Origin: Paraspadella gotoi
Taxonomy: Eukaryota > Animalia > Chaetognatha
DNA: 64,000 bases
Direction: 5' to 3'
NCBI GenBank assembly: GCA_051294375.1
Contig: CM119269.1
Span: 16,171,010 to 16,235,009 of the forward strand
Made by a program: the position numbers and the translations under genes
Notes under the pieces: generated by a model
Seen by the model: only the letters and a program-made list of their open reading frames with translations
Told to the model about the DNA's origin: nothing
Database searches by the model: none
In this document: positions 48,785 to 54,343 of the stretch, piece after piece
Numbering within the stretch: the first letter of the stretch is position 1
How the letters are laid out: every line of letters starts with the position of its first letter

Positions 48785-48969
48785 TCAAGACCCCGCCTTC
48801 TCTTCCTTCTCCCCGAGAATCAAGCTCAGACGTTCGAAGGAGGGTCGTGCCTCTGGCGAGTAGTTCCAGCAGAGACGGATCACTTCCCAAACGTCGGGCG
48901 GAATCCTCAAAGGCTTCATCATGATGCGACGCTGTTGAAGCATCTCGATCACCTCGATATTGGTCGATC
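48785..48969 (-). CDS. RTK exon 10 (kinase subdomains X-XI, stop)
   Basis: GSTNIEVIEMLQQRRIMMKPLRIPPDVWEVIRLCWNYSPEARPSFERLSLILGEKEEKAGS*; CW..RPSF motif. Confidence 0.94.
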
Positions 48970-49267
48970 CTTATGCAAAAATAATTGATCCAATATAAAA
49001 TAAACAAATAGCTAAATAATTAAGCATTTAAATATTTGAATAATGATGTATCTAGTATTCCTGTCTTTAAAAATGAGCATCAAACTAACGTATATAGCAT
49101 TAGTGCTCGAATTGTGGCAAGTTATTTCCAAATTTATATTTTAAAACTTAGTTTGAGATAAGAGAATTTTGTATTTGTTTACAAACAACGACTTTTATTT
49201 AGAAACAAGGAAAGTATTCATTCAAAATTTTAATACGTCAAAAAAAAAAAAACATTACAAAACTCAC

Positions 49268-49380
49268 CAGGGTAAGGAACGGCGCCCATGGTGTGAATCT
49301 CCGTCATGGTGACCCCGAAGGACCAAACGTCCGACTTGGAGGAGAATTTGTTCAGCAACACGGCTTCGGGGGCCGACCAT
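49268..49380 (-). CDS. RTK exon 9 (kinase subdomains VIII-IX)
   Basis: [37 protein letters not shown]; donor G|GTGAGT. Confidence 0.96.
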
Positions 49381-49449
49381 CTGCAAAGAAGCAAGGAATA
49401 TTAGGAAACATTGAAAAAACGGGCAACGACAGAGACAGAGTGGACCGAC

Positions 49450-49651
49450 TTGACGGGAAACTTGGCGCCGGGTTTGGAGGTGTAGTAGTCCTGATCGTCG
49501 GCGAGGGATTTGGTGAGACCGAAGTCGGCGACTTTGACGAGGAGTCGAGAGTCAATGAGGATGTTGCGGGCGGCGAGGTCGCGGTGGACGAAGTGTTGCG
49601 ACTCCAAGTAGCGCATCCCTTCGCAGATTTGGAGGCAGAACGAGTCCGCGT
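49450..49651 (-). CDS. RTK exon 8 (catalytic loop, DFG, activation loop)
   Basis: [55 protein letters not shown]. Confidence 0.97.
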
Positions 49652-49837
49652 CTGGTGGAATGGGGAGACAGGAGAAAATAAAATGGTTCATTTTTGTTTT
49701 GTCTTCTTTTATTTTTACTTTTTTTTTTTAAGTTTCATTACAAAGCAATATGTGAATAATATTGCCATTTGAATCATCGCAGAGTAAAAATCCCCTTATT
49801 ATCACCTTTGGTAAGTAAAAAAATAAACTCGACTCAC

Positions 49838-50032
49838 CGGCTCTCGAAAGAGATCCTCCAGCGAGATTCTTGTCTGAGAGGTAAGTTAACAAGTCACCGC
49901 CGTCCATGTATTCGGTAATGATGAGGTAAGGTTCCTCGGCCGAAACGACCCCGATCAGCCTCACCACGTTTTCGTGAACGAGGCCGCGCATGACGTCGGC
50001 TTCGGAGAGGAAAGTCTCGGGGGTCATGCAAC
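49838..50032 (-). CDS. RTK exon 7 (kinase subdomains III-V)
   Basis: GCMTPETFLSEADVMRGLVHENVVRLIGVVSAEEPYLIITEYMDGGDLLTYL; canonical splice sites. Confidence 0.95.
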
Positions 50033-50456
50033 CTGATCGACCAGTGATATGGAATGAGTTTACAGCGATCATTCGTTTTTTTTTTTACTTCATATTTTTT
50101 AATTCATTTTTTTAATAATTACAGAATGAAAACAAAACAATTTATTGAATTTATATTAATTAAAATATTCAATATTCAATATTTCAATTATTTCTTTCAA
50201 TTATGCCAGATCCTTGCAACAATAAACAATAATTTCGTTTCATTATGAAAGGACACTGAAAACTGAAAGGATCGATACAAAATAAATCCCCAAAATTAAA
50301 AAAAAACATTACTGAACAGTCTTTATTAAGGTGTTCAGTGAACACCTTAATAAACATCCCCATCATTTTCTCTAATGAAAACCACAACGACGACAGTAAC
50401 AGCCACAACGACCACACCCACACGCCCACAAGTCCCCACTCCCTCGCTCGACTCAC

Positions 50457-51388
50457 CCGGTCTCAACGACTTCACCGCAACGACGACCTCATCCATCCTT
50501 TTCCCCCTCCACACGGCCCTGTAGACTCGCCCGAAGTTCCCTTCTCCCAATTTCTGTAGAAACTCGATGTCCCCTCGACGGATTTCCCTGGAGGCGGCGG
50601 CGTCGGCTGGCGTCGGCGCGAAGTAGTCGGGATTCTCGAAGCGACTCCGACGAAGGAATCGCGCCGACGAAAAGCGGGAGAGCGTTCGAGCGCCGCGGCG
50701 AGGGCTGCGGCCGAAGGCGGGGACGCCGCCGATGAGAAATGAACGCCGCTTCCTCAGTGCCACGAAAATGACGACTGCAGCGACAATGACGAAGAGGACG
50801 ACGATGATCACGACGACGAAACCAACGCCGCCGACGCCTTTCGGCTGCATCAGGCGCATCTCCCGCAGTCGCCCATCGACAAGGGCGCGAAGGACGACGG
50901 AGAAGTTGGACGAGATCGTCTGGAGATTCGGTGGCGAGCAGACGGCGTCGGCGGCGACGTCGACGACGACAGGTGCCTCGTCTCCGAAGTCTTTAACTAC
51001 TCGAAGAAGCCAGCAGGACGCCGAGCGCGCCGTCGCGCGTCCTCGTTCGCGAGCTGCGCCGTCGCAACCAAAATCAACGCCGGCGACTTCGCCGCAAGGA
51101 TCCTTCGTCTGCAGCACCACGAAGACTTCGGACAGGCGGGCGACGCCAAGGTAGCGCCGCAAGTCCGACGTCCGCGGAAGCTTCAACGGACAGGAAGATG
51201 AGAGATGGCAAGGGGTGTCGGGAGGGTTGGGGATGCGGAGACAGGTGAGTTTAGTGGGTTGAGTGAGGAGGGAGGGAAGGTGCCCGAGGATTGTCACGTT
51301 GCTGTGGTTTTTGTTGTTGTTGTTGTAGTTGACGATCCAACGGGTTTTTCTGAGCAGGGTTTGTCGACAGATTAACCGGGAGACGTCA
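50457..51388 (-). CDS. RTK exon 6 (membrane-proximal ectodomain, TM, juxtamembrane, kinase subdomains I-II)
   Basis: TM VGFVVVIIVVLFVIVAAVVIFVAL followed by RKRR; FENPDYF; LGEGNFGRVY and VAVK; donor G|GTGAGT. Confidence 0.93.
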
Positions 51389-52687: not shown

Positions 52688-52736
52688 CTAAGAATAAAAG
52701 TAAACGGTAATTTATAAGATTAAGACACACACTTAT

Positions 52737-52931
52737 CAATTACAGTATTGCGAATCATCTCTCATTCCTACTACTGGCGCTGACTCAGTGGCGACAGCCT
52801 CACCGTAGACTGAGATCAAAGCCGTTCGACGAAAACCCGACCAGAATAGGAATCTTTCGGGCAGTTTTGAGGTGAACCTGGGAAAGGATGGTGGAGCTTC
52901 ATCGAAAATGATGTCATGGCACTTTTTTCGA
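52737..52931 (-). CDS. RTK exon 4 (3' boundary non-canonical)
   Basis: tttag|T RKKCHDIIFDEAPPSFPRFTSKLPERFLFWSGFRRTALISVYGEAV..DSQYCN; the phase-compatible donor reads TG|ATAAGT. Confidence 0.55.
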
Positions 52932-53060
52932 CTAAAGTTTTAACTCTTGGCATCTCAGTTAAATATTTCATTCGTTAATTTGTAGCGAATTTGTGATGTC
53001 TCGACCTTTAAACATTAACGATAGTACATTTTTCTCAATCATTTTCGACTTGAAATTTAC

Positions 53061-53156
53061 TTGTCCAGAATTTGACGTTGGAAACGACTGTTGATCCATG
53101 GTCGGAAGGAGCCGTGATCCCGGACCAAAATCTCAAACCGTAGCATAGAAAGTTTT
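53061..53156 (-). CDS. RTK exon 3 (96 nt, reading frame ambiguous)
   Basis: ttttgctcag| ... |gtaaat; symmetric exon open in two frames. Confidence 0.65.
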
Positions 53157-53273
53157 CTGAGCAAAAAAAAGAGTTTAATCAATTACTTTTCTTCTCGTTG
53201 CAAAAAAAAACAAAAACGTTTAAGCAGATTGATAGTATATAAATTATGAGATATCAATTAAGAATCGATTAAC

Positions 53274-53772
53274 CCTATTTCCGACGATTCCGATCTTCTC
53301 CACTTCTCCGTCAGCGAAACTCGTCCAGGAGATTCCTCGTACAAAATAGCGAGTTCGCGTCTATTCCGTTGGCTCTTTCCGTCGGCGCCGCAACCGTTTG
53401 ACGCCCAAAACCGAAATCCTATTGGCGGTCGACGAGCGGTACGTGACGTATGGGAAGATGCGAAGGAAAACTTGACGACGTTTTTGGGTTCGGCGAAACG
53501 AAACCAGAGGCGCTGAGGGAGGATAGACGACGACGAAGACGACCAAAACGACGACGACGACGACAAGAAAGAAGACGATCTTTGAATGGAGAACGCCGCC
53601 TCTGGTGAAGCGCCGTCCGCCCAAGAGGACGCCGAGGCGGCGNNNNNNNNNNAAACTTCAAAGGTAAAGTTGACGGGATGGAGTGGGAGTGAGTCGCCGA
53701 CGCTGACGATGGGCTTTAGACGAGGAGGTGGAGAAAGGTCTGGAGGTAAGTTCAAGGCGGCGCCGACGATTT
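53274..53772 (-). CDS. RTK exon 2 (discoidin/F5-8 type C-like domain; contains an N-gap)
   Basis: ctcag|; ASASSW..PEAAF..FWSS..PQRLWFRFAEPKNVVKFSF..PIGFRFWASN pattern resembles galactose-binding/F5-8C-like folds. Confidence 0.7.
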
Positions 53773-54279
53773 CTGAGAAATGTTTATAGGGATTTTATTG
53801 GAAATTTCTTAACTTGGAGAAGCGAAACTTCAATTAAATATTACGTGATTGAACAATGCGTTATGAATTACTTTGCATTTGACTTCTCGCATGGTTGAAT
53901 ATTATTTAAATAATTTTACTGAAGAAAAAAAAATATATTTAGTAGTTATGATGATCGTCGATATTATTTGTGTTATTTCTGCCTGTGTCATTTGAGTCAT
54001 TTGAGTTTTTTTGCAAGCTTTTATCTGCAATGTATTCAGTTATGGCACATCATTTCAAAGTCTTTTATTACTGTTTTTTTCTCGTTTTTTTTTTGGCTAG
54101 TTACAAAGAATTATTTTAACGATAAAAAAAAATTATCGTTTTTCTTTGTGTGATAATCGGGAGTGCAATATTGATGTAATAGTGAGAGATAAAAATCAGA
54201 GTTTTTTGATAAAAAACATAAACAATAACTGAAGTATTAGAATTATCAGAATTACTAGTTTGCGTTATGTTTTGTTTAC

Positions 54280-54343
54280 CTCTTTTTCCTAAACAAATAT
54301 TGGAAACTACGACGAAAAAAGCGAAGACGGAAATGAGAGTCAT
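54280..54343 (-). CDS. Receptor tyrosine kinase exon 1 (signal peptide)
   Basis: aaaATG; MTLISVFAFFVVVSNICLGKR with a hydrophobic core; phase-1 donor G|GTAAAC compatible with exon 2. Confidence 0.75.

Follow-up and report, generated by a model that had tools for sequence, protein, structure and literature searches.

Can a kinase domain of the cytoplasmic Src type come to serve as the engine of a cell-surface receptor? This question is raised by a ten-exon gene on the minus strand of Paraspadella gotoi (Chaetognatha; GenBank assembly GCA_051294375.1, contig CM119269.1). The gene occupies 48785..54343 of the window, which is the whole stretch of 64,000 nucleotides that was analysed (contig positions 16,171,010 to 16,235,009); all coordinates below refer to the window. 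A first-pass annotation had described it as a receptor tyrosine kinase (RTK) with a discoidin-like head and four complement control protein (CCP, or sushi) modules, fused to a kinase of the Src/Frk/Abl/Tec kind. The gene is real and is spliced into one transcript. The reading that we favour, to which we give a probability of about 0.5, is that its product is a single-pass receptor derived from a cytoplasmic Src-module kinase and that its head would bind a cell-surface or microbial glycan.

Gene structure and transcript

A single Logan contig of 3,727 nt (run X1) covers exons 2-10 in order; it was compared with window positions 48700-53790. The contig bridges eight of the nine introns, from the discoidin-like exon through to the kinase. 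The front exons are thus spliced to the kinase exons, and the break between them that the first-pass annotation had named as fatal to its proposal was not found. The exons, all on the minus strand, are as follows.

54280..54343, minus strand: exon 1; ATG, predicted signal peptide and phase-1 donor, read from the sequence with the RNA joint inferred
53274..53772, minus strand: exon 2; most of the F5/8C (discoidin)-like domain, with a 10-N gap and genome indels (contig piece 53277-53774)
53061..53156, minus strand: exon 3; final strands of the discoidin-like domain (contig piece 53059-53157; frame check)
52772..52877 (3' end approximate), minus strand: exon 4; start of the Cys module (joints 52875/53059 and 52663/52779)
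51659..52661, minus strand: exon 5; end of the Cys module, possible degenerate CCP, CCP1-CCP3, start of CCP4
50457..51388, minus strand: exon 6; end of CCP4, stalk, transmembrane (TM) helix, juxtamembrane segment, NPDY and kinase strands β1-β3 (ungapped contig piece)
49838..50032, minus strand: exon 7; GxM (GCM) loop, helix C, Thr gatekeeper, hinge, short αD-αE loop
49450..49651, minus strand: exon 8; activation loop with YY and GAKFP (Pfam E 5.5e-24)
49268..49380, minus strand: exon 9; WSAPE to PYPG
48785..48969, minus strand: coding part of exon 10; helices G-I and a tail of ~15 residues (stop 48785-48787)
48601..48784, minus strand: 3' untranslated region; AATAAA at 48623, contig end at ~48601 if colinear (compared only down to 48700)

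Six joints are clean CT..AC joints (48968/49267, 49380/49450, 49651/49838, 50030/50455, 51388/51659 and 52875/53059). The two others (52663/52779 and 53157/53277) carry extra contig letters, and at both the genome has lost bases beside ordinary GT donors (53273 and about 52771). If the contig is colinear, its end would fall about 20 nt beyond AATAAA. Run X1, which contains 47% of the sampled words from the region, is not on record as RNA and is treated as mRNA-derived solely from the spliced joints; the RNA support consists of one run and one contig.

The joint between exons 1 and 2 lies beyond the compared stretch. Exon 1 is assigned because 167 contig letters stand upstream of exon 2 and the codon count is divisible by three. 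With exon 1 at 54343-54280, the coding sequence measured on the contig is 3,438 nt long, or 1,146 codons including the stop, which implies a protein of ~1,145 aa. The ten exons of the first-pass annotation stand, and its length of ~1170 codons does not. Its exon joins were partly wrong over exons 2-5; the corrected boundaries are 53274 for the end of exon 2, about 52772 for the end of exon 4, and 52661 for the start of exon 5. No second copy of the kinase-receptor gene was found within the 64-kb window.

Compared with the window, the contig shows 16 listed substitutions and 25 indel rows; the 12 indel rows displayed all fall within 52611-53441. Six contig pieces across 48700-52519 contain no gaps, and the joined exons from 52518 to the stop form 828 codons with no internal stop; these 828 residues are secure. 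The stretch 52520-52594 differs between contig and genome. When the listed differences are applied, exon 4 forms one 77-codon frame with the end of exon 3 and the start of exon 5, and the joint between exons 2 and 3 reads through; we infer that two leftover frame switches must sit among the 13 undisplayed indel rows. Because the indels cluster there, a translation of exon 2 to the start of exon 5 from the genome alone is wrong in places. The contig piece for exon 2 is barely longer than its genome counterpart (508 vs. 498 letters), so that the 10-N gap hides no extra domain.

Ectodomain and kinase might instead belong to separate genes, or the gene might be a frameshifted pseudogene. Frameshifting genome indels do occur in exons 2-5, including beside two donors, and the one RNA contig may derive from the material used for the assembly. 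Against this, a single spliced contig with a codon count divisible by three joins the ectodomain and kinase exons, and exon 6 alone carries CCP4, stalk, TM helix, and the beginning of the kinase without a break in the reading frame. The indels fall within a stretch of ~1.2 kb adjoining the assembly gap, and a relative described below (P0015) independently links a TM helix to the same kinase type. We thus regard an artefact or a dead gene as highly improbable. Such a cluster of errors next to an assembly gap is better explained by an unpolished consensus than by a pseudogene.

Membrane segment and kinase domain

One strong TM helix (50820-50755, minus strand; hydropathy 3.84) is followed by a basic juxtamembrane segment, by NPDY at 50634-50623 (minus strand), and by the kinase strands from 50568. 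All five kinase-bearing exons match Pfam PK_Tyr_Ser-Thr. The catalytic motifs GxGxxG, VAVK, helix-C Glu, HRD, DFG (read in exon 8), and APE are intact. TM helix, NPDY, and complete kinase had all been noted in the first-pass annotation and are upheld here; the protein is very probably an active receptor.

The kinase has GCM, a GxM in the β3-αC loop, and GAKF, a GxKF in the activation loop. The two motifs are diagnostic of the Src-module subgroup according to passages of PMC8662651, which bears out the Src/Frk/Abl/Tec likeness claimed earlier. In the supplement of that paper (a FASTA file of 433 sequences), all 27 occurrences of GAKFP are in SrcA, SrcB, Tec, Abl, Frk, or SrcM rows. A regular-expression search of the 27 rows of our second tree (see below) found both motifs solely in this kinase, in P0015, and in the Src-type row (L006). 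The β3-αC linker is short as in Src- and Abl-type rows and at least 2 residues shorter than in Eph, Trk, Ros-type, ACK, and Fes-type rows. The proxy length of the αD-αE loop, measurable in 14 of the 27 rows, is 24, compared to 22 in Abl/SRM, 21 in Eph, and 34 in Trk. After β3, identity is 47-48% to the Abl and Src rows and 35-42% to the other 23 rows. The activation-loop Tyr is in the register of Src Y416 and the gatekeeper is Thr. The closest chains in the PDB are Fyn, Src, and Abl for exon 7 and Lck for exon 10. Taken together, these sequence features make a Src-module origin of the kinase core probable.

The surroundings of this core differ from those of Src. Pfam searches gave no match to SH2 or SH3, and the TM helix and juxtamembrane segment directly precede the kinase, so that the SH3-SH2-kinase architecture is absent. 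The protein ends ~15 residues past the kinase in a tail that has neither a Tyr nor a SAM domain. Traits of the long-DE clade (long αD-αE loop) are absent as well: the loop is short, exon 10 is unbroken, so that the phase-2 intron in helix H is missing, and the kinase has WS, not WM, where we infer that the activation-loop Met of the paper is this W-M position. The traits of DDR receptors are likewise missing, as there is neither a long-DE kinase nor a tandem discoidin arrangement without CCP. The first-pass annotation had already noted that DDR has discoidin domains but no CCP.

Relatives of the receptor

A search with exon 8 recovered P0015, a singleton from JGI on a contig of 1,569 nt, in which exon 8 is 82% identical. 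Identity is 73% in the kinase and 65% over 342 residues, which include a TM helix, RFENPNYF, and the kinase. The open reading frame (ORF) of P0015 continues uninterrupted over the positions of all four kinase introns, and P0015 is therefore likely mRNA-derived. Among its 60 best PDB matches, 59 are Src-family, Abl, or Src-Abl-ancestor chains and the other is a two-domain EGFR construct; the top single-domain chains are the Src-Abl ancestor, ABL1, HCK, Lyn, Fyn, and Src. This second member, with the same TM-NPxY-kinase module, shows that a receptor family exists. The 70 residues before the TM helix of P0015, the N-terminus of which may be cut off, are Thr/Glu-rich and unlike the stalk of the P. 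gotoi receptor, and ectodomains thus probably vary within the family.

A representative search with exon 6 gave four matches. One, P0003 (ENA, 724-nt contig), was retained as a family fragment; it ends at the same intron site after β3. The three others were rejected: P0002 consists of perfect repeats and owes its score to a sum over six copies, P0004 belongs to the TKL-like receptors, and P0005 is an amphioxus Trk. A scan of JGI metagenomes left four loci among 558 pattern matches, each 25-30% identical and none a family member.

Some other proteins were encountered in these searches. P0004 (Logan) is a 701-aa single-pass receptor with a short Cys-rich ectodomain and a TKL-like kinase. P0130/P0011 (ENA) is a protein of 2,883 aa with at least four tandem tyrosine-kinase domains, and two P0011 domains cluster with the Src/SRM clade (96/87, 27-row tree). 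IMG/VR contigs L008, L010-L011, and L013-L032, mostly from giant-virus bins, encode kinases with HRDLA[AT]RN or SDxWxxG that are at most 39% identical to P0015; they could be host contamination in the bins.

Ectodomain

The ectodomain comprises ~770 residues. In the ESM Atlas, a 104-residue piece of exon 2 matches clusters of F5/8 type C domains at 0.91, and all of the 10 best family matches belong to one clan. In the RNA-implied frame, exons 4-5 encode a Cys module with the spacing C-x30-C-x3-C-x16-C-x-C, a pattern like that of PAN/apple or WSC modules. It is followed by the sushi region, for which hidden Markov models (HMMs) were built from the repeats of this protein and from outside repeats.

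52518-52321 (approximate), minus strand: possible degenerate fifth CCP; five Cys, precedes the four
52308-52141, minus strand: CCP1; outside-repeat HMM E 0.0026
52128-51958, minus strand: CCP2; Pfam Sushi E 1.4e-6, the sole module passing Pfam
51945-51766, minus strand: CCP3; outside-repeat HMM E 0.0002
51753 to 51241, minus strand, split over exons 5/6: CCP4; long Asn-rich insert

The four CCP modules predicted in the first-pass annotation are confirmed by their Cys pattern (six Cys each, C1-C3/C2-C4 with Trp), by the HMMs, and by the Pfam match of CCP2. With the own-repeat HMM, built for this test from the other three modules, CCP4 outscores all 100 shuffles, and with the outside HMM it outscores 97 of 100. 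In the PDB, the CCP exon is closest to CR1, factor H, and CR2 (E to 6e-17). The four modules may be preceded by a degenerate fifth CCP; its score was equalled by 1 of 100 shuffles with the outside HMM and by 14 of 100 with the own-repeat HMM. The structure model of the CCP region is unusable (predicted local distance difference test, pLDDT, 33.7). A search with the CCP exon among longer proteins gave a sole match from 1,844 candidates (P0001), which was rejected as an ordinary multi-sushi protein. The Asn-rich insert of CCP4 corresponds to an (AAC)n run at 51300-51330 (minus strand), adjoined by two N-glycosylation sequons.

A stalk of ~125 aa (51216-50839, minus strand) lies between CCP4 and the TM helix. 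Its similarity to WIF in the Atlas (0.77) is a lead only. The single-sequence model of the stalk has a pLDDT of 48.6, and a Foldseek search of the PDB with this model gave nothing at E<=0.001. The exon 6 search among longer proteins had no match in 7,988 candidates.

Phylogeny and origin of the kinase

Two trees were computed. The first has 39 rows, 14 partial domains having been dropped by the coverage filter, and includes no Src or Abl row. From the second, with 27 rows, a pseudokinase, most TKL-like rows, and two long-branch rows were excluded; its Abl-type (L005) and Src-type (L006) rows were named from motifs matching the supplement of PMC8662651. In both trees, the P. gotoi kinase and P0015 form a pair at 100/100. 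Measured by path, the rows nearest to the pair are L005 and L006. Among the bootstrap trees, the most frequent sister of the pair is the Src-module clade (376/1,000 for the whole domain).

Several points weigh against a receptor that descends from a cytoplasmic Src-module kinase and carries a discoidin-like head. The reference set has one Abl-type and one Src-type row, with no Frk, Tec, or Csk. The pair falls outside the starred Src+SRM clade and has a long stem (0.89-0.99); its position is without support in either tree. Constraining the pair with Eph gave a p value of 0.143 in the approximately unbiased test (p-AU), compared to 0.43 with the Src module, so that neither is rejected. Exon 8 alone is closest to TYK2, BMX, JAK1, and BTK among single-domain PDB chains. 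The long β2-β3 loop and an NPxYF spacing that matches IGF1R are receptor-like and not Src-like. As to the head, the discoidin call is one embedding search with 124 of 256 features in common, below most true family members, and Pfam and PDB sequence searches of the region gave nothing; the F5/8C-like head of the first-pass annotation is retained as a putative domain on the Atlas result. Of the fusion between an ectodomain and a non-receptor kinase that was proposed there, the single spliced receptor is confirmed, and neither tree establishes its descent from a cytoplasmic kinase. The suggested role in innate immunity or cell recognition is speculative.

The juxtamembrane segment may hint at a hybrid. 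NPDY contains the only cytoplasmic Tyr outside the kinase domain and is conserved in P0015 as NPNY. From NPDYF to the G-loop, the sequence aligns to IGF1R without a gap and with identical NPxYF spacing, and TrkA also aligns over NPxY. This resemblance to IGF1R/Trk receptors hints that a chimeric origin is possible, in which the TM helix, NPxY, and β1-β3 of exon 6 would come from a receptor of the insulin-receptor/Trk type and would have been joined at the phase-1 intron after β3 to a Src-module core (exons 7-10); signalling would be the same as in the reading that we favour. An amphioxus Trk is among the four exon 6 matches (E 8.6e-4), the β2-β3 loop has receptor length, the intron lies inside the G of GxM where P0003 also stops, and the bootstrap share of the Src module as sister rises from 376 to 481/1,000 when β1-β3 are removed. 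However, β1-β3 alone still score highest with the Abl-type row (91 vs. 79 for Trk), ABL1 ties with IGF1R in the PDB search (23.8 vs. 24.0 bits), and NPxY consists of four residues, for which convergence is possible. We consider such a chimera improbable.

The kinase could also never have been cytoplasmic. It would then belong to an old short-DE receptor lineage, either sister to the Src module or a strongly derived relative of Eph/RTKC, with Src-like motifs that were kept or arose by convergence. In passages of PMC6485061, the Eph ectodomain has a discoidin-superfamily head and then a sushi-containing Cys-rich region. Likeness to the Src-Abl ancestor is not diagnostic, since choanoflagellate RTKC8 is itself ~43% identical to the construct of that ancestor (PMC10263333, in the part consulted). 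Besides the p-AU value for Eph, the bootstraps agree with such a lineage where they make the pair the sister of a broad group that includes most other rows (322/1,000) or of Eph plus the Src module (208/1,000). On the other side, the Eph rows form a 100/100 clade that excludes the pair and lack GxM, GxKF, and the short linker. Pfam searches gave no match to FN3, SAM, or Eph-TM, and the protein ends shortly after the kinase. Ephrin_lbd is absent among the eight Atlas rows shown, the head having been tested on the error-bearing genome copy. An old receptor lineage is unlikely on balance.

Proposed mechanism and significance

Under the favoured descent from a cytoplasmic kinase, a Src-module kinase would have lost SH3-SH2 and gained a membrane anchor. 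The CCP chain would keep the discoidin-like head off the membrane, and a multivalent ligand would cluster the receptors. Clustered kinases would trans-phosphorylate the activation-loop Tyr; NPDY would be phosphorylated next and would recruit a PTB adaptor of the Shc/IRS/Dok type. Lacking SH3, SH2, and a tail Tyr, the receptor cannot be held by the Csk clamp that acts on Src kinases; clustering together with the basic juxtamembrane segment would replace this clamp. Architecture, motifs, and the conserved TM-NPxY-kinase module are observed, and the steps are drawn by analogy from established RTK biology. By this analogy, NPxY-PTB signalling is the likely output. For the ligand, the chance that it is a glycan or non-self structure rather than a protein or matrix component is about even: a head that resembles bacterial-type F5/8C carbohydrate-binding modules, set on a CCP stalk, is a selectin-like plan, which favours glycans, and discoidin domains also bind collagen, as in DDR.

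Passages of PMC8662651 count three origins of expanded receptor clades (long-DE, EGFR, and Eph/RTKC) and treat Src-module kinases as cytoplasmic SH3-SH2 proteins. With its Src-type kinase, the P. gotoi gene probably represents one more origin of receptor kinases, separate from these. As far as the consulted parts of these papers go, a vertebrate survey left the switch between cytoplasmic and receptor kinases unresolved (PMC4898815), and RTKs diversify independently in each lineage, with some having turned cytoplasmic (PMC4342544). If true, a Src-module core in this transcribed receptor family would offer a recent and inspectable case of a switch from cytoplasmic kinase to receptor, and it would test how a Src-type domain is controlled without the SH3-SH2 clamp. 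If the head binds glycans, one chain would combine functions that selectin or complement receptors and their associated Src kinases divide between two proteins. A bolder version is a fourth independent animal RTK origin, in which a Src-module core was grafted at the intron after β3 onto a receptor membrane/NPxY segment and the ectodomains diversified into lectin/complement-type sensors of non-self glycans within one invertebrate lineage; this is speculative and rather unlikely as a whole.

Other features of the window

A spliced ferritin gene is present at 11208-11900 (minus strand; Pfam Ferritin E 1e-17 and 4e-15). Directly upstream of it, at 12177-12464 (minus strand), is an ORF piece that matches DUF2452 (E 9.5e-9), presumably the C1orf50 family. 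Two 160-bp copies with 97% identity (47640-47797 and 47898-48057) flank a 100-N gap and are probably an unmerged assembly overlap. Near N gaps, there are also an inverted repeat of ~1.2 kb (896-2051 vs. 7648-6430; 89.5%) and a direct repeat of ~1 kb (2098-3086 vs. 3495-4475; 91.5%).

Comparison with known systems

In the full-text literature searched, from which subscription journals are mostly absent, neither this architecture nor a receptor that has a Src-module kinase was found; supplementary trees or sponge kinome tables may already contain similar proteins. In the part of PMC8662651 that was consulted, a published table counts 70 receptor-type sequences among 4,850 SrcM sequences, which the accompanying text there does not discuss. 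The receptor shares with Src/Frk/Abl/Tec kinases, as described in passages of that paper, GxM, GxKF, the short β3-αC linker, the short αD-αE loop, the Thr gatekeeper, and the register of the activation-loop Tyr. Its highest identity (47-48% after β3) is also to this group, and its HRDLAARN is the Frk/Abl/Tec form. Human FRK probably has phase-1 introns in matching positions, after β3 and after PY-G. Unlike these kinases, it lacks SH3, SH2, PH, and an inhibitory tail Tyr and has a signal peptide, an ectodomain of ~770 residues, a TM helix, NPxY, and a long β2-β3 loop.

With DDR1/2, the receptor has in common an N-terminal discoidin-type domain, a single TM helix, and a tyrosine kinase. DDR proteins, however, combine a discoidin with a discoidin-like domain and have no CCP, and their IRKL kinase carries a long DE insert (median 19), whereas the loop is here just two residues longer than in the Abl/SRM rows. 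IGF1R/InsR/Trk receptors resemble it in having NPxYF at the IGF1R distance from the G-loop; they differ in that the P. gotoi kinase is devoid of the long DE insert, the W-M Met, and the helix-H intron, and the ectodomains are unrelated.

Eph and the choanoflagellate RTKC receptors are similar in their discoidin-superfamily head, a Cys-rich/sushi region, a juxtamembrane Tyr, and a short-DE kinase near the cytoplasmic kinases. The P. gotoi receptor differs by the absence of FN3, SAM, and a PDZ tail, by four or five CCPs instead of one, and by its Src-module motifs. The Eph plan of a discoidin-superfamily head plus sushi (passages of PMC6485061 and PMC6993872) is a loose precedent for this ectodomain. 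This precedent, the IGF1R/Trk-like juxtamembrane segment, and the relative with a different stalk had gone unmentioned in the first-pass annotation.

Lineage-specific invertebrate and holozoan RTKs (Venus kinase receptors, sponge sushi kinases, ichthyosporean RTKs) are also receptors built by domain shuffling. Sushi domains reportedly occur in some Eph- or Met-like RTKs of the sponge Amphimedon, according to its genome paper. Sponge genes that respond to lipopolysaccharide and combine kinase activity with sushi domains are described in passages of PMC8242945, which do not give the architecture of the genes. Venus kinase receptors differ in that their kinase, according to abstracts, is insulin-receptor-like. 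New ectodomain combinations are common among RTKs of invertebrates and holozoans, and the ectodomain described here is thus moderately surprising. The P. gotoi receptor is a lineage-specific RTK, and its interest lies in the Src-module engine and the possible hybrid origin rather than in the ectodomain.

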